Of a DNA stretch of 64,000 nt, positions 3,194-60,431 are shown in pieces. This DNA is from Actinomycetaceae bacterium. Lineage in GTDB: Bacteria; Actinomycetota; Actinomycetes; Actinomycetales; Actinomycetaceae. Within the stretch, counting starts at the first letter, position 1. Every line of letters begins with the position of its first letter. A program made the position numbers and the translations under genes. The stretch lies in assembly GCA_017539125.1 (NCBI GenBank), contig JAFYHO010000054.1:12171-76170 (forward strand), given 5' to 3'. Below the pieces are notes generated by a model, which ran no database searches, was not told the DNA's origin, and saw nothing but the letters and a program-made list of their open reading frames with translations.

Positions 3194-3853
3194 CTACTGA
3201 GAAAGGACGTCAATAATACCGTCGGCGCCGGCCTCCACGCAGGCGAGAGTGTCCCAATAGCCGGCGTCGTCGCCGTACCACGGGTCGGGCACGTCCGCCT
3301 TGCCGTTGGAAACGTAAAAGTCCTGATAACTCCCCCGCTTCGAGCGCCCCTCGCTGGCACTCTCAGCCAAAAAACCACCCTCACCGAAACAACCACCGAG
3401 GGCAATCTCCAAACCACTGTCGTCAAATTCGCGCCACAGGTGCAACACCGACAGGTCCAGGCCAAGCTCGCTCATGCGGCGGCGCAGGGAGCGGGCGTGC
3501 CCGACCGTCATCGCAAGAATAAGACCCGACTCGCGCAACTCAGCGTCGCTAGCGCGGTGTGCTCGGCGTGCCGGCACATCATAGCCTGCCTCGCGCAGCA
3601 CGCGCGCTGCCGGCGGATAGATGGGATTGCCCTGTTCTTCTGCGCTAACCCCGCAGCTTGCCACGCTGTAGCGCTCGTCCAAACCAGCCTCAGCCAAGCG
3701 CTCGCGCAGCACGACCTCCCCCATTGGTGAGCGGCAAATATTGCCCGTACACACGACCAGTATCTGTGGCTTGCGCGCCAAGTGCGCACGGATATTAGAG
3801 ATTGCTTCGTCGCTTCGCTCCTCGCAACGACGGGACGGGTTCTCGTTACTCAT
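3194..3853 (-). CDS. low-molecular-weight protein-tyrosine phosphatase
   Basis: CX5R(S) P-loop VVCTGNICRSPMGE and a downstream DPWYG aspartate loop. The track ORF (to 4024) reads through repeat DNA, so I use the ATG at 3853. An alternative TTG at 3781 would give MARKPQILVVCTGN. Confidence 0.8.
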   Translation of the reverse strand: MSNENPSRRCEERSDEAISNIRAHLARKPQILVVCTGNICRSPMGEVVLRERLAEAGLDERYSVASCGVSAEEQGNPIYPPAARVLREAGYDVPARRAHRASDAELRESGLILAMTVGHARSLRRRMSELGLDLSVLHLWREFDDSGLEIALGGCFGEGGFLAESASEGRSKRGSYQDFYVSNGKADVPDPWYGDDAGYWDTLACVEAGADGIIDVLSQ

Positions 3854-3998
3854 GCCCTTAGTATACAAACCCGTCGTCGCGAGGAGTCCCGCTAGGGACG
3901 ACGAAGCAATCAATAGTCCGTTACTGCGTGCGTTGCAAAGCAAGCAATGTCCATTATTGATTGCCGCGTCGGCACTCCGTGCCTCCTCGCAATGACGG
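3800..3998. repeat. palindromic repeat family, locus A: one reverse half-unit at 3800-3834 and a full unit at 3870-3998
   Basis: 3800-3834 reads GATTGCTTCGTCGCTTCGCTCCTCGCAACGACGGG. 3870-3998 runs CCCGTCGTCGCGAGGAG...CGACGAAGCAATCAATAGTCCGTTACTG...CAATGTCCATTATTGATTGC...CTCCTCGCAATGACGG. The arms are inverted copies of each other. Confidence 0.85.
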
Positions 3999-7150: not shown

Positions 7151-7178
7151 CCTTACATTTAGGTGACATTTATGTAAG
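7151..7178 (-). promoter_or_regulatory. candidate BceR-type response-regulator binding site upstream of the ABC operon
   Basis: The minus strand reads CTTACATAAATGTCACCTAAATGTAAGG. This gives TTACA-N4-TGTCA plus a flanking TTACA...TGTAA inverted repeat, 45-72 nt upstream of the ATG at 7106. It resembles the TNACA-N4-TGTAA box recalled for Bce-like systems. Confidence 0.45.
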
Positions 7179-7200: not shown

Positions 7201-7582
7201 CCCGTCATTGCGAGGAGCGAGGAACGAGCGACGAAGCAATCAATAGTCCATTATTGCTTGCATTGCACAGCAAGGAGTGGAGGGTCGGAACGCTTGTGTT
7301 CCAGACCGAAACGACGTAGCTGTATTCAGTCGCTACGCTCCTTTTGGCAACTGCGTCACTACGGTCTCAAAGAAGCAAGCTTCTTTGGACGCTTCGTTCC
7401 TTGTTGTGGAAGGCGTGCAACGCACGCCGAACAACGCTGACAAATGTCCATTATTGATCGCCATAACAAGGAGCGTAATGCCTGAGGGAGCTTGCTCACT
7501 CAAGGCTGGAGCGACGCAGTTATGAGAGGCAACGGAGTTGCCGAACACGTCGCAGGCGGAGCCTGCTCCTCGCGACGACGGG
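7201..7582. repeat. palindromic repeat family, locus B (largest composite array, about 380 bp)
   Basis: Starts CCCGTCATTGCGAGGAGCGAGGAACGAGCGACGAAGCAATCAATAGTCCATTATTG and ends CTCCTCGCGACGACGGG. It contains stacked hairpin modules, for example GGAGGGTCGGAACGCTTGTGTTCCAGACCGAA. The core at 7454-7552 is near-identical in reverse complement to 37674-37770. Confidence 0.85.
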
Positions 7583-7593
7583 ATTGGGAGAAG

Positions 7594-8658
7594 CTAATCA
7601 GCCGGCATGGGGAAGACAAAGGAGAACGCCGCGCCCTCGCCCTCAGTGGAGCTCGCGCGAATCCCAAGGCCCATTTTCTGTGCCAGTTTCGCCACTAGAT
7701 ATAGACCGAGTCCAGTCGCTTTTTCATTGCGCACGCGCCCGTTTTCCCCCGTAAAGCCCTTATCAAAAATGCGTGGCATATCTGCCGCTGAGATACCGCA
7801 ACCGTTGTCGGCGACCGTCAGCACGACCGTCCGTCCAGCGCCTTCGCCCTCATAGGCTGCGGAGAAAGACAAAACGGGCTGCACCTTGGCATCAGCATCC
7901 CCGTCCACACTCCCGTCTCCGTCCTGCACCCGATACTTCACGGCATTGTCGATGAGCTGCCCCAACATAAAGACGAGCCATTTTTCGTCACTCAACACGC
8001 AGATGCCGTCATCGATTCCAGACATATCGATGCTCATGTGTGCGTCGATGAGGCTGCGCCGCCGCTCGCGCACCGCCGCCGAGACAACATCGCGCACCGA
8101 AAGCCGGGAAATGAAATAGTCGCGCTCTACCGAAGAGGAGCGGGCGAAAAAGAGCGCCTGGTCAACATAGAAACCGACGCGGTCGAGCTGTGAAGCAATC
8201 TGGTTCGCCCCCGCCCCCGCACTAGGCGCATTCTCGAGCGCCAAATAGGCTGCCGCAATAGGCGTCTTGACCTCGTGTACCCACGATTCGATGTATTCGC
8301 GGTGCTCAAGCGCGCTGGTCGTGACGGCGTCGAGGCGTTCGCGTGCGTCGTAGTTGAGGGTTTCGCAGGCACGCGCGCCTGCTGCCTGCTCAGGGGCGGA
8401 GGTTTCTCGCGGTACGCGCTCGTCGAGCGGACTCTCGCTATCAGCGATGGTGTCGAAGGCTCGCCACGTGGGCAGGGTGTGCAGGAAGCCGAAAACTATC
8501 ATGGCCAACCATGCTCCGCAGACCGTCAAGGCGACAAGAATCGTCGCTTGCTTGTTAATTCCCGTGCCGCTGAGAACGAAAACAATCAGCGCAATACAAG
8601 CGGCCAGCACAACGAGTTGATACCAGCGCGAGAGGGCGTAGCGGGCGAAGCGTCTCAT
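7594..8658 (-). CDS. BceS-like intramembrane-sensing histidine kinase
   Basis: Two N-terminal TM segments with almost no extracellular loop. H-box WVHEVKTPIAAA, N-box LIDNAVKY, G-boxes DNGCGI and GLGLYL. Confidence 0.85.
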   Translation of the reverse strand: MRRFARYALSRWYQLVVLAACIALIVFVLSGTGINKQATILVALTVCGAWLAMIVFGFLHTLPTWRAFDTIADSESPLDERVPRETSAPEQAAGARACETLNYDARERLDAVTTSALEHREYIESWVHEVKTPIAAAYLALENAPSAGAGANQIASQLDRVGFYVDQALFFARSSSVERDYFISRLSVRDVVSAAVRERRRSLIDAHMSIDMSGIDDGICVLSDEKWLVFMLGQLIDNAVKYRVQDGDGSVDGDADAKVQPVLSFSAAYEGEGAGRTVVLTVADNGCGISAADMPRIFDKGFTGENGRVRNEKATGLGLYLVAKLAQKMGLGIRASSTEGEGAAFSFVFPMPAD

Positions 8659-9384: not shown

Positions 9385-10614
9385 TTAGCCTTGGGGGCGC
9401 AGGGCAACCATCATCGCTTCAAGGGTCAGCAAGGGAGCACCATTGCCTGCCAGACGTTCGCGCGCCTGCCCGATTGCCTCGATACGCCGCACGCTCTGCT
9501 CCGGAGTGCTCTCAGCAGCAATACGCCGAATATCGCTCTCAAAGTCGATATTCATCAAATCGACCTCGCCGCCAAGCTGGACGATCAGCACATCGCGGTA
9601 GACCGAGAGCAAATCAATCATTACCCTGTCGAGACTGTCTCGGCTTTGGCGCTTTTGCCGCTTTTTCAGCTTCTCCTCGAAGTCGCGCACTTGCTTGCGC
9701 AGCGCCGAAGGTACATTCTGCCCCTCGGCAATCCCCAGCTGGCGCTTAAACTCCGCCAATTCGGGGTCGTCAGCATTTTTCTTGCCGCGAGATTGCTTCG
9801 TCGGAGAGGAGGTTGCCGCGTCGCTCGCGTCGCTCGCTCCTCGCAACGACGAAGGGGAATCAGCCTCGCGCTTGGTGGCATTGTCAAGAATCTCCATAAT
9901 ATTCGCCGCGGCGTAGACGGCATCGCCCACACCGCGCACACTCACCGCTTCGCGCACGACCTGCTGGCGGTCCTCCCACACGCCCGCGTCACGAACAAGC
10001 CCGCGAGCGCGCCCAATATGCGATTGCGCCGCGCGCGCTGCCACAAGTGCCTGCTGCGGGTCGACCCCTTGGCTGACCAGCAGCTGCGCCACGTCCTCTG
10101 CCGGCGGCACGACGAGCCCCACATGACGACAGCGCGAGCGAATCGTGGGGAGTACGTCGTCGAGGGAGGGGGTGCAGAGCATCCAGACGGTGAAAGCCGG
10201 CGGCTCTTCAATCGCCTTAAGCAAGACATTTGTGGTGCGCTCGCTCATGCGATCAGCATCTTCGACGATGATGATTCGGTAGCGTCCTGAACTGGGGCTT
10301 TCATAGGATTCGCCGACAAGCGCGCGCGTTTCTTCGACGGTAATCGTCACGCCCTCGGCGTTCATCAGGGTGAGGTCTGGGTGGTTGCCGGACATGACAG
10401 TGCGGCATTGGTGGCATTGCCCGCAGCCTGGGCTGTCGGTGGTTTCGCATTGCAAGGCAGCGGCGAGAGCGCGTGCTGCGAGGGAGCGCCCTGAGCCGGG
10501 CGGACCGGTGAAAAGCCATGCGTGGCTCATTGCTGCTGTTCCCCGCTCGCAGGCGGCGCGTTCGAGCTGGCGGCAGACCGCCGCCTGTCCGATGAGGGAA
10601 TCGAAAACGCTCAC
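9385..10614 (-). CDS. holB: DNA polymerase III subunit delta-prime
   Basis: AAA+ clamp-loader N-terminus HAWLFTGPPGSGRS, zinc module CGQCHQC, and SRC-type motif TIRSRC. It sits downstream of tmk and topA, as in many actinobacteria. Confidence 0.85.
   Translation of the reverse strand: MSVFDSLIGQAAVCRQLERAACERGTAAMSHAWLFTGPPGSGRSLAARALAAALQCETTDSPGCGQCHQCRTVMSGNHPDLTLMNAEGVTITVEETRALVGESYESPSSGRYRIIIVEDADRMSERTTNVLLKAIEEPPAFTVWMLCTPSLDDVLPTIRSRCRHVGLVVPPAEDVAQLLVSQGVDPQQALVAARAAQSHIGRARGLVRDAGVWEDRQQVVREAVSVRGVGDAVYAAANIMEILDNATKREADSPSSLRGASDASDAATSSPTKQSRGKKNADDPELAEFKRQLGIAEGQNVPSALRKQVRDFEEKLKKRQKRQSRDSLDRVMIDLLSVYRDVLIVQLGGEVDLMNIDFESDIRRIAAESTPEQSVRRIEAIGQARERLAGNGAPLLTLEAMMVALRPQG
9791..9851. 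repeat. half-unit of the palindromic repeat family embedded in frame inside holB
   Basis: The minus strand reads CGTCGTTGCGAGGAGCGAGCGACGCGAGCGACGCGGCAACCTCCTCTCCGACGAAGCAATC. It is translated as SSLRGASDASDAATSSPTKQS. Intergenic locus C gives SSLRGASATKQS in the same frame. Confidence 0.75.
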
Positions 10615-10698: not shown

Positions 10699-10803
10699 TC
10701 CTCGTCGTTGCGAGGAGCGTCAGCGACGAAGCAATCTCAAAGGGCAATGGTGGAACTGGAGATTGCTTCGGTCGGACTTCGTCCTCCCTCGCAACGACGG
10801 GGG
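10699..10803. repeat. palindromic repeat family, locus C (minimal unit of about 100 bp between holB and tmk)
   Basis: CTCGTCGTTGCGAGGAGCGTCAGCGACGAAGCAATC - 24-nt spacer - GATTGCTTCGGTCGGACTTCGTCCTCCCTCGCAACGACGG. The two halves can fold into a long hairpin. Confidence 0.85.
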
Positions 10804-37643: not shown

Positions 37644-37942
37644 CCCGTCATCGCGAGGAGTGACCGAAGGGAACGACGTGTTCGGCACTTCGTGCCTCTC
37701 ATAACTGCGTCGCTCCAGCCTTGAGTGAGCAAGCTCCCTCAGGCATTCCGCTCCTTGTTATGGCGATCAATAGTCCATTATTGCCTGCTTTGCAAAACGG
37801 CCAACTGTCCAATATTGATTGCTTCGTCATTCACTTCGTTCATTCCTCGCACAACAACGAACGGAGGGTCTGAAAGCTTGCTTTCAAGACCGAAGTGAAG
37901 AAGGGTTGCAGCATCGAAGATGCGAACACCGCCCCGAAACGG
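37644..37942. repeat. palindromic repeat family, locus D (composite, about 300 bp)
   Basis: Starts CCCGTCATCGCGAGGAG. It contains a core of about 97 nt (37674-37770) that is the reverse complement of 7454-7552. Further on are ATCAATAGTCCATTATTG, GATTGCTTCGTC, and the hairpin modules GGAGGGTCTGAAAGCTTGCTTTCAAGACCGAAG and GGTTGCAGCATCGAAGATGCGAAC. Confidence 0.85.
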
Positions 37943-58161: not shown

Positions 58162-59340
58162 TTAAGAGGTGATTTTCTTGTAGATATCGCTAATCGTTTC
58201 GAAGTGCTCCACGTGTCCATGGCGAGTATTGAACGTATCCTCGCCACAATAGACAAGAAAACGCTCATCTGGCGTTAAACCAAAATCGTCACCCAAAGCG
58301 TCAAGATGTACAAACCCCTCAGGCTTGTATGTGTGAGACGATTTGATTTCTATTCCTGCAACAGCCTGCAGTCCGCGAGAAACAACAAGGTCGATTTCGC
58401 GCCCATTAGAGTCTTGCCAATAATAAAAATCCGGCTCTACACCAGCATTGAGATACTGTTTAGCCAACTCGACAATAACCGCGTTTTCGTAGAGCTCACC
58501 TTTCATGTCACCCGAACGATAATCGTCAGGCGAAGTAAAACCAAGAAGATGGCAGGCAAGCCCCGTATCCCAAAAATACAATTTGGGCTTTTTGACAAGA
58601 CGCTTGCTGAGGTTTTTATGCCACGGGTTCAGACGGAAAATAATGTAACTTTCCTCCAACGCCGAAAGCCAATTATTGACGGTTTTGACACTGACACTAC
58701 TGGCAGCAGCCAAAGCCGACAGATTAAGTGGAGAACCGATATGGGTGGCACACAGTCGGAGGAATGTCTGAAAAGACGACAGGTTACGCACGCCCAACTC
58801 TGTGCGAACATCTCGCTCGCAATACGTCTGAACATAGCTGGGATAGTAGTCAAGCGGCGACATATCCGAACTGTAAAGACGCGGATAGCTACCGGTAAAA
58901 ACCCAATCATCAATAGAACTGGGCGGCTCAGGAACTTCGTTGTATGCGAGAGGGAGTAGGCGAAGCACTCCCACTCGCCCTGCAAGGGACTGCTGGATGG
59001 ACTGGGAAAGAAGAAAATTCTGTGAACCAGAAAGAATAAAACGCCCCGGCTCAGACGAATTGTCAATGCGCTCTTGGAGATATGAGAAAAGTTCTGGGAC
59101 ACGCTGGGCTTCATCGAGAATAACAGGCTGACCTATAGAGTCCAGAAAAAATCGCGGGTCATCCACTATTCGTTTGCGAATATCAGGTGTTTCCAGAGAA
59201 TAATACGCATATGAGGGGAAATGATTTTTCAGCAGCGTTGTTTTCCCGCTCTGACGTGGACCAGTCAAAGATACTGCCGGAAAAGAGCGCAAGAGCTCTT
59301 CTAAACGCGTAGACAGATGCCGCTCAATGCTCCTGTTCAT
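58162..59340 (-). CDS. AAA-family ATPase with a C-terminal DUF4143-type domain
   Basis: P-loop LTGPRQSGKTTLLK and Walker B PVILDEAQRV; 392 aa, matching the AAA_14 + DUF4143 architecture as I remember it. Confidence 0.8.
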   Translation of the reverse strand: MNRSIERHLSTRLEELLRSFPAVSLTGPRQSGKTTLLKNHFPSYAYYSLETPDIRKRIVDDPRFFLDSIGQPVILDEAQRVPELFSYLQERIDNSSEPGRFILSGSQNFLLSQSIQQSLAGRVGVLRLLPLAYNEVPEPPSSIDDWVFTGSYPRLYSSDMSPLDYYPSYVQTYCERDVRTELGVRNLSSFQTFLRLCATHIGSPLNLSALAAASSVSVKTVNNWLSALEESYIIFRLNPWHKNLSKRLVKKPKLYFWDTGLACHLLGFTSPDDYRSGDMKGELYENAVIVELAKQYLNAGVEPDFYYWQDSNGREIDLVVSRGLQAVAGIEIKSSHTYKPEGFVHLDALGDDFGLTPDERFLVYCGEDTFNTRHGHVEHFETISDIYKKITS

Positions 59341-59341
59341 A

Positions 59342-59370
59342 CAAGCCTCCTACCTGCACTACTTCCTGTT
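59342..59370 (+). repeat. 29-bp direct repeat, copy 2 (contains the ATPase SD on the minus strand)
   Basis: CAAGCCTCCTACCTGCACTACTTCCTGTT. The reverse complement supplies GGTAGGAGGCTTGT immediately before the ATPase ATG. Confidence 0.9.
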
Positions 59371-59473
59371 TTGCATAAAGTCTACTTCCTGTTTTGCATA
59401 AAGTCTACTTCCTGTTTTACATAAAGTCTACTTCCTGTTTTGCATAAAGTCTACTTCCTGTTTTGCACAAACT
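59359..59473 (+). repeat. five tandem copies of a 23-bp unit (iteron-like array)
   Basis: CTACTTCCTGTTTTGCATAAAGT is repeated head to tail at 59359, 59382, 59405, 59428 and 59451. Copy 3 has G>A, and copy 5 diverges at its 3' end. There are no spacers. Confidence 0.9.
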
Positions 59474-60341: not shown

Positions 60342-60431
60342 CCGTCATTGCGAGGAAGCCCAAAGGGCTGACGAAGCAATCTCTACTGGGAGATCGCCAC
60401 GTCGGCGCGGAGCGCCTCCTCGCGACGACGG
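60342..60431. repeat. palindromic repeat family, locus E (minimal unit of about 90 bp)
   Basis: CCGTCATTGCGAGGAAGCCCAAAGGGCTGACGAAGCAATC ... GATCGCCACGTCGGCGCGGAGCGCCTCCTCGCGACGACGG. Confidence 0.85.

Follow-up and report, generated by a model that had tools for sequence, protein, structure and literature searches.

An intergenic repeat family of paired hairpin halves with nested insertions of a second element in an Actinomycetaceae genome, and its probable relation to Ssn-associated repeats

Results

The composite repeat and the extent of its family

A stretch of 64,000 nt (hereafter the window) from contig JAFYHO010000054.1 of an Actinomycetaceae metagenome-assembled genome (MAG; GCA_017539125.1; 1.79 Mb in 173 contigs, 53.5% G+C, 93% complete) contains a 380-nt intergenic repeat at positions 7202-7581. 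It follows the stop of a Bce-like kinase gene (7594-8658, minus strand) by 12 nt and precedes the start of an ABC ATPase gene (7106, minus strand) by 95 nt. A first-pass annotation of the window had described this repeat as a string of hairpins, and had distinguished a GGAGGGTC-hairpin-AGACCGAA module and a ~97-nt core as separate modules of a palindromic family. Judged by comparison with uninterrupted paralogues, the composite is instead one 128-nt inverted pair of repeat halves carrying three nested insertions of a second element of ~86 nt, here called X, and both of the supposed modules correspond to X (Table 1). The junction of the X copy at 7268-7433 was identical to that of intact copies in contigs C59, C6, C80, C68 and C93, and the copy at 7462-7548 had 98% identical copies in contig C152. 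Compared with shuffled sequences, the folding of the 380-nt stretch gave z values of -9.3 (plus strand) and -6.8 (minus strand).

The family of repeats sharing the same arms, which the annotation had reported at several intergenic loci, proved to be real. With up to two mismatches, the outer arm (CCGTCRTYGCGAGGAG) was matched 11 times in the window against 0.14 matches expected, and the inner arm (CGACGAAGCAATC) 8 times against 0.23. The genome-wide count of arms, named beforehand as a check, revealed copies far beyond the loci of the window: the 16-nt outer arm had 198 matches with up to one mismatch (none for the reversed control), and its 14-nt core had 571-576 with up to two mismatches, i.e. 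approximately 575 halves. Inverted arm pairs less than 450 nt apart numbered 159 with the 14-nt core. Size classes, derived from the stricter 16-nt set (75 pairs less than 400 nt apart), lay at approximately 85, 125-133, 176 and 210 nt, and the composite at 7202-7581 was the only copy of 380 nt.

When the matches of arms and X were merged, 364 clusters were obtained, spanning 42.1 kb or 2.35% of the genome, and 29 of them were found within 150 nt of a contig end. According to a heuristic map of open reading frames (ORFs), on which all statistics of gene context rest, 276 of the 364 clusters were intergenic, and clusters occupied approximately 227 of 1,374 intergenic gaps (about one in six), with a somewhat higher frequency in convergent gaps (54 of 236) than in the other gap types (14-16%). 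The claim that all copies lie at gene boundaries holds for the majority only, represented by these 276 clusters; one half is located in frame within holB (Table 1). Element ends that face gene stops were a median of 35 nt away from them, with a sharp peak at 6-8 nt (e.g. window 7582-7596). The stop codons found at this short distance were TAA (37), TAG (17) and TGA (6), vs. 725, 724 and 1,004, respectively, in a background of six-frame long ORFs (p = 4e-8), a bias that may reflect either a choice of target or the survival of harmless insertions.

Structure of the repeat unit

The unit of repetition is a half of ~40 nt that folds on itself on one strand, rather than one long hairpin. Each half (approximately 35-55 nt) consists, from the outside inward, of a G-poor leader of ~8 nt, the head CCGTC (CCGTC(A/G)T when extended into the stem), the first strand of a 5-bp stem (RTYGC), GAGGAG, a variable hairpin, CGACGNN, the second stem strand (GCRAY) and a final C. 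The sequences GAGGAG and CGACGNN lie opposite each other in an internal loop, and the top is formed by a hypervariable mini-hairpin with a C-GNA-G loop.

This layout was reflected in the covariation within halves. The outer Y7 and the inner R formed T-A in 232 cases and C-G in 101, with 14 non-pairs (chi-square 282, p = 2e-63), while the adjacent stem pair was A-T in 186 cases, G.T in 137, G-C in 18 and A.C in 6. Between the two outer arms of an element, left and right, there was essentially no correlation (p ~0.05), and in particular no positive one, so that pairing across the element is not supported, and the proposal that the minimal units fold into one long hairpin had to be abandoned: the outer arm pairs with the inner arm of its own half, not left with right. 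Since G.T was tolerated and A.C avoided, the relevant strand is the one that reads from the outside of the element inward.

The variable hairpin was represented by 165 distinct sequences among 234. On the inward-reading strand its loops were GNA triloops in 96 cases vs. TNC in 12, and a C-G closing pair was present in 185 of the 234. The C-GNA-G arrangement is a classical extra-stable DNA mini-hairpin (PMC13037366; see also PMC3201870); d(GCGAAGC) melts at 76.5 °C, and the RNA r(GCGAAAGC) at 39 °C (PMC13037366). The sense strand of the halves had the better predicted stability in 278 cases vs. 38 with DNA parameters, and in 314 vs. 10 with RNA parameters. Both the asymmetry between strands and the loops of the C-GNA-G type speak for single-stranded DNA as the folded form.

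The 8 nt outside each arm contained only 5-13% G and were rich in C and T, whatever gene feature they faced. A reading of this bias as Shine-Dalgarno sequence was ruled out, as the G-poor leader did not differ between ends that face the start of a gene and those that face a stop. No direct repeat indicative of target duplication was detected next to the arms beyond chance at the 157 complete elements, nor was any TA duplication found further out, the presence of TA at the two ends being uncorrelated. Copy-specific inverted flanks, expected for insertion into terminator stems, were likewise not observed beyond what base composition gives.

Element X

A profile built from six copies of X retrieved 183 genomic copies, of which 113 were full length. 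The element is asymmetric and structured, and starts with an outer stem of 4-5 bp, followed by RAGGAGCGG, a long hairpin, GTAGCGACGMA and the closing stem strand; its 3' end consists of a C-GNA-G mini-hairpin and CCGAACA. The outer stem occurs as ATAAC/GTTAT, ACAAC/GTTGT, ACAGC/GCTGT or GACGA/TCGT, and the core (stem, RAGGAG, hairpin, CGACGMA, stem) mirrors the main half. In an alignment of 45 copies, 16 out of 16 predicted pairs showed compensatory double changes, and the sense strand was predicted to be the more stable one in 111 of the 113 full-length copies, vs. 2 for the opposite strand.

The insertion points of X were stereotyped, with an ambiguity of 2 nt (CA, CG or AC), and the junctions were exact when compared with uninterrupted paralogues. 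Within the main repeats, X was found in the inner arm, in the central loop and in the outer arm at CTCCTCG[CA]ACGACGG, where it splits the arm; copies were also inserted inside other X copies, and each target had its own stem subfamily. Other copies overlapped, by 2-3 nt at their start, the annotated 3' ends of tRNA-Leu(CAG), tRNA-Leu(GAG) and tRNA-Val(CAC), in the orientation of the tRNA (Table 1), and nine tRNA-X pairs were less than 100 nt apart. Relative to neighboring transcription, the orientation of X was random (35 vs. 45, p = 0.31), which argues against a role in mRNA.

In 40 relatives (two congeners and 38 members of the family or order), the arms were found at background level only and X was absent, while X copies within the genome were up to 94-100% identical. 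On these sequence comparisons, the expansion of the repeats is species-specific and partly recent. The earlier description of a proliferating non-autonomous structured element was therefore upheld, the family being confined to the present species when compared with the 40 relatives, gene-less, and endowed with some near-identical copies and exact nested junctions.

Association with a GIY-YIG nuclease gene in other genomes

The reference genome collection contained the exact core of the repeat (GTCATTGCGAG-N6-30-GACGAAGCAATC) in at least 120 stretches, and among the matches listed the core was distributed over many phyla: Alphaproteobacteria (many Bradyrhizobium, Sphingomonadales and Rickettsiales), Gammaproteobacteria, Bacteroidota, Patescibacteria, Chloroflexota, Planctomycetota, Zixibacteria, Ignavibacteria, Verrucomicrobiota, Myxococcota and Bacillota. 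Among the same matches it was nearly always accompanied by its mirrored half. At two loci, one of a Planctomycetota genome (L027) and one of Bacillota (L080), an ORF of 95 aa lay exactly between the two halves. This ORF encodes a single GIY-YIG domain (PF01541, E = 6e-18) and belongs to a family of at least 7,985 proteins at E <= 1e-10; the nearest solved structures were the uncharacterized UPF0213 proteins 1zg2 and 1ywl (E = 9e-7). At the L027 locus, which comes from a MAG, ~43 nt of the 5' region of pheT (AAGCTCACATTCCTGGGGCTTGAGGTCGCAGCCCTCAGCGCTG) were duplicated upstream and downstream of the unit formed by hairpin, ssn relative and hairpin.

Proteins named Ssn, encoded by ssn genes, have been described by Chenal et al. 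(Nat Commun 2025; PMC11893778) as single-domain GIY-YIG proteins of ~94 aa (CDD cd10448). According to that work, Ssn binds an oriented hairpin repeat as single-stranded DNA, on one strand only, and cuts a few nt upstream, being inactive on double-stranded DNA and RNA. The repeats, which form hairpins, are 20-50 nt long and have a conserved, oriented 5' head (..GTCWY..), were named NTS in Neisseria (CGTCATTCCCGCGMAVGCGGGAATCYRG), where the nuclease of N. meningitidis is SsnA; in other bacteria they were termed Ssn-related motifs (SRM). Repeats flanked 42% of the ssn homologues on both sides, and ssn was present in 81% of the genomes with more than 200 SRMs. The arrangement NTS-ssnA-NTS was likened to an insertion sequence, and its mobility was left as a hypothesis (PMC11893778).

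Among 80 metagenomic loci with relatives of the 95-aa ORF, an outer arm was present within 130 nt upstream in 58, downstream in 59 and on both sides in 49, and 77 of the loci held at least one half. Within Actinomycetota, the protein was found in 18 of 301 sampled genomes. Of the nine strong matches, five had their ORF bracketed by arms (L210-L212, L216 and L228) and a sixth had reversed arms; no arms were found around the weaker Actinomycetota GIY-YIG matches. One of the bracketed genes (L228, G058:C20) had three arms per side, which implies tandem or nested hairpins around it.

Contig C88 of the source genome itself encodes a protein of 571 aa (L122, G000:C88:49778-51493, minus strand) that combines a GIY-YIG-like motif near its N-terminus with a P-loop ATPase region; an X copy is located ~600 nt away. 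This second GIY-YIG match of the genome was considered as a candidate Ssn and rejected, since by its sequence it looks like a nuclease-ATPase of the DUF2075 type.

Discussion

Relation to Ssn-related motifs

The most probable explanation, which we hold with some confidence on grounds of sequence, is that the repeats are Ssn-type hairpin sites of single-stranded DNA that have spread as gene-less miniatures, and that X, likewise non-autonomous, is a second element that takes advantage of this recognition or of a similar one. The assignment to the Ssn/SRM system was made because the head, the architecture and the predicted strand rule are the same, and because of the link with the GIY-YIG gene. 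Both families share an oriented head with CGTCAT and a stem that opens with ATT.. and closes with ..AAT-C. In both, copies number in the hundreds and are mostly intergenic, and inverted copies bracket a gene for a GIY-YIG protein of ~95 aa (in the present case in other genomes). Folding on one strand only, with signs of DNA, is predicted for the present family, and the occurrence among phyla is scattered in both, with expansions in bacteria that live with hosts. The first-pass annotation had known of no formal description of the family; it belongs with the SRM/NTS motifs of Chenal et al. (PMC11893778). The same annotation was right that no transposase is present in the window, yet a partner GIY-YIG gene sits between the halves in other genomes.

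Differences from the published motifs were also evident. The halves described here have an internal loop and a hypervariable C-GNA-G mini-hairpin, in contrast to the simple GCG-MAV-GCG top of the known motifs, and most of them are arranged in inverted pairs, some of which have a long inner stem in addition. Moreover, the host is a Gram-positive member of Actinomycetaceae, its assembly contains no ssn, and X is nested in the repeats. The family consensus fails the published SRM string (HGTCWYN(0-2)YYVSBRHN(0-5)WNVSBRGN(0-2)RNCYNB), which the Neisseria NTS passes, and the string was matched in only one of the 80 loci with ssn relatives.

According to this explanation, the full element, as it occurs elsewhere, would consist of two inverted halves bracketing ssn, and the gene-less pairs and solo halves would be its miniatures, which in this genome would have multiplied to approximately 575 halves, and X to approximately 183 copies. 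An Ssn acting in trans, when the DNA is single-stranded, would cut each half at its outer edge, the two halves being cut on opposite strands, and the cut may drive copying to new sites. The cognate Ssn would have been lost, or may be missing from the fragmented assembly.

Several results weigh against the relation with Ssn. In the source genome, PF01541 matched only two long unrelated ORFs (561 and 578 aa), and tblastn searches for an ssn-like gene gave nothing at E values up to 10; however, a short gene bracketed by high-copy repeats is easily lost from a MAG, so its absence is weak evidence. The published SRM string had 10 matches in the genome vs. 10-20 in shuffled sequences. No empty site was recovered for the main element, the kinase/ABC spacer of the congener G002 and the holB linker being too diverged, and no X was detected near ssn genes in ~1 Mb of loci from other phyla. 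As regards X, what connects it with Ssn is its resemblance to the main half.

Whether the nesting reflects real transposition is a further question, and a positive answer, although possible, seems doubtful to us. In that case, gene-less pairs and X would be moved in trans by a hydrolytic nuclease of ~95 aa, X would read the structure of its target and insert after CA (or CG/AC) at fixed points of SRM hairpins, other X copies and tRNA acceptor ends, the subfamilies would be matched to their targets, and the spacing of 6-8 nt from stop codons would represent target choice. To our knowledge, transposition by a hydrolytic single-strand nuclease has so far been shown for no transposon.

Alternative explanations and comparison with other repeat systems

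The annotation had suggested a role in termination or mRNA stability, and it can be asked whether the hairpins act in RNA and are kept by selection because they stabilize the 3' ends of the genes beside them, terminate their transcription or serve as processing sites. Such a role would account for the proximity of stop-facing ends to the stops and for the somewhat higher frequency in convergent gaps; a transcript reading into the element would also carry the well-folding strand, in which G.U pairs are tolerated. It is nevertheless very unlikely and fits the data poorly, given that the fold of X is one-sided while its orientation is random, that the C-GNA-G loops are the form stable in DNA and not in RNA, and that elements also occupy divergent gaps, tRNA ends and a coding region. 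Hairpins were not followed by a T-run; in Rfam, nothing in the whole window reached the gathering score, and only chance-level matches appeared between 7100 and 7700 at a permissive threshold. The family is also absent from congeners that have the same genes, and the published Ssn does not bind RNA (PMC11893778). A selective role of another kind, in which the host would keep the repeats as working Ssn sites that shape or restrict incoming single-stranded DNA (transformation, conjugation), and not as selfish relics, is unlikely. It has in its favor the published function of NTS in N. meningitidis (PMC11893778), the very high density of the repeats in intergenic gaps and the fact that the hairpins have remained intact despite their hypervariable stems, but it is at odds with an assembly devoid of ssn, with the many units disrupted by X, split outer arms included, and with the existence of solo and degraded halves.

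The annotation had also called the family REP/MITE-like, that is, similar to repetitive extragenic palindromic (REP) sequences or miniature inverted-repeat transposable elements (MITEs). The repeats could then be an ordinary REP/REPIN family or a MITE derived from an insertion sequence (IS), moved by a Y1 (RAYT, IS200/IS605) or DDE transposase, with GIY-YIG genes merely landing between them. They do share with REP, REPIN and bacterial interspersed mosaic elements (BIMEs) short imperfect palindromes with an oriented head, which often form inverted pairs and a longer hairpin, as well as mosaic arrays of modules, intergenic location, recognition of a single-strand hairpin and the lack of target duplication that is usual for Y1-driven elements, and the genome has no GIY-YIG partner. 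However, the label is not appropriate in its strict sense, since there is neither target-site duplication nor a Y1/RAYT gene (no match to PF01797 in the genome, with 6 of 14 control genomes positive). Furthermore, the head is CCGTC instead of the GTAG of REPs, and REPs are lineage-specific, whereas here identical head and stems recur across phyla with the same clade of nuclease, in place of a Y1 transposase, exactly between them; weaker GIY-YIG relatives have no arms, and the pairing of nuclease and repeat has been established biochemically for the sister motif (PMC11893778). An origin of this kind is thus highly unlikely.

Some features recall other systems. As in IS200/IS605 elements and their gene-less derivatives, the palindrome-associated transposable elements (PATEs), end hairpins would be read as single-stranded DNA and no target duplication is produced, and like IS200/IS605, X inserts at a fixed short sequence, with subfamilies tied to their targets. 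In contrast to IS200/IS605, the end hairpins lie here on opposite strands instead of the same strand, TnpA and TnpB are lacking, and Ssn is a hydrolytic nuclease without known strand-joining activity. Rickettsia palindromic elements (RPE) are likewise short palindromic repeats able to sit in frame in genes, and the motif was also detected in Rickettsiales genomes (loci L029, L088, L091 and L114). The translated repeats had no match in NCBIfam at E values up to 10, in a release whose content of RPE models was left unchecked.

With the relation to Ssn as the preferred explanation, novelty is limited to three aspects. The first is a hairpin class that the published SRM pattern misses, with a conserved head and an expanded hypervariable top; this class is spread over many phyla, and its partner is a large branch of the nuclease family. 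The second is the lack of an ssn gene in the present assembly, and the third an element, X, that inserts precisely into hairpins, other X copies and tRNA 3' ends. Surveys based on the published string would undercount the Ssn/SRM system, especially outside Gram-negative bacteria. The burst in one species, the near-identical copies and the exact nested insertions bear on the open question of mobility. For annotation, it is relevant that the repeats yield spurious ORFs, break assemblies and can sit in frame in genes.

Other copies in the window and gene context

The coordinates of the copies in the window, together with those of the X copies at tRNA ends, are collected in Table 1.

Table 1. Repeat features of the window (positions 1 to 64,000) and X copies at tRNA ends in other contigs.
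Feature	Position	Strand	Basis or remark
Solo half	3799-3833	-	Arm matches
Uninterrupted 128-nt pair of halves	3871-3998		Reference for the empty sites of X insertions
Composite element	7202-7581		128 + about 3 x 84 = 380 nt; parsed against uninterrupted paralogues
Left half: CCGTC, ATTGC, GAGGAG, variable hairpin, CGACGAA, GCAAT, C	7202-7241	+ (folding strand)	Arm matches
Left extended inner stem and central loop, AATAGTCCATTATTGC..TTGCA, 125-133-nt class	7242-7267		Aligns with uninterrupted 3912-3960
X, CAGC/GCTG stem subfamily, in central loop at TTTG[CA]ACGC	7268-7433	+	Split at ~7322/7323
Reverse X nested inside the X at 7268-7433	7322-7408	-	nhmmer E = 5.6e-17, profile positions 1-86
Right central loop and extended inner stem, ACGCTGACAAATGTCCATTATTGATCGC	7434-7461		Paralogue comparison
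X, ATAAC/GTTAT stem subfamily, in right inner arm at GATCGC[CA]CGTCG	7462-7548	+	nhmmer E = 4.4e-21
Remainder of right half: GTCG, hairpin CAGGCGGAGCCTG, outer arm CTCCTCGCGACGACGG	7549-7581	- (folding strand)	Arm matches
Half with internal duplication, located in frame within holB (variable linker)	9791-9852	-	Peptide SSLRGASDASDAATSSPTKQS
99-nt pair of halves	10702-10800		Arm matches
Pair of halves with two X, right end degraded	37645-37927		Reverse X at 37678-37762, X from 37850
Minimal 90-nt pair of halves	60342-60431		Arm matches
X copies at tRNA ends	C48:20817-20909, C53:15065-15155, C95:4745-4828	As tRNA

Two of the loci had to be redrawn with respect to the first-pass annotation. Repeats are indeed present at 3800-3998, which had been listed as one locus, as a solo half followed by a complete pair, and the repeat reported at 37644-37942 exists but reaches only to about 37927 and contains two copies of X, a reverse one in the left inner arm (37678-37762) and another in the right outer arm (from 37850). 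The gene that holds the in-frame half was identified as holB by the Pfam family DNA_pol3_delta2 (ORF 9385-10614, minus strand), and the linker concerned is hypervariable among relatives. In a search for other assemblies of the composite locus, only the same sample turned up. Elsewhere in the window (59336-59473), a 23-nt unit (CTACTTCCTGTTTTGCATAAAGT) was present in five tandem copies.

Between the composite and the start of the ABC ATPase gene, an imperfect palindrome (CTTACATTTAGGTGACATTTATGTAAG) at 7152-7178 resembles the box of a BceR-type response regulator. The composite is located distal to (upstream of) this putative regulator box, and it is probably a passenger of the Bce-like module, without a role in its regulation. 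The congener G002 has the same pair of kinase and ABC genes, with a shorter spacer that lacks the element. This spacer (L207, G002:C242, ~1170-1360) contains two copies of a different palindrome, GTATCRCAGGGGTCAGACMCCTKTGATAC, which suggests another repeat family in the species of G002.

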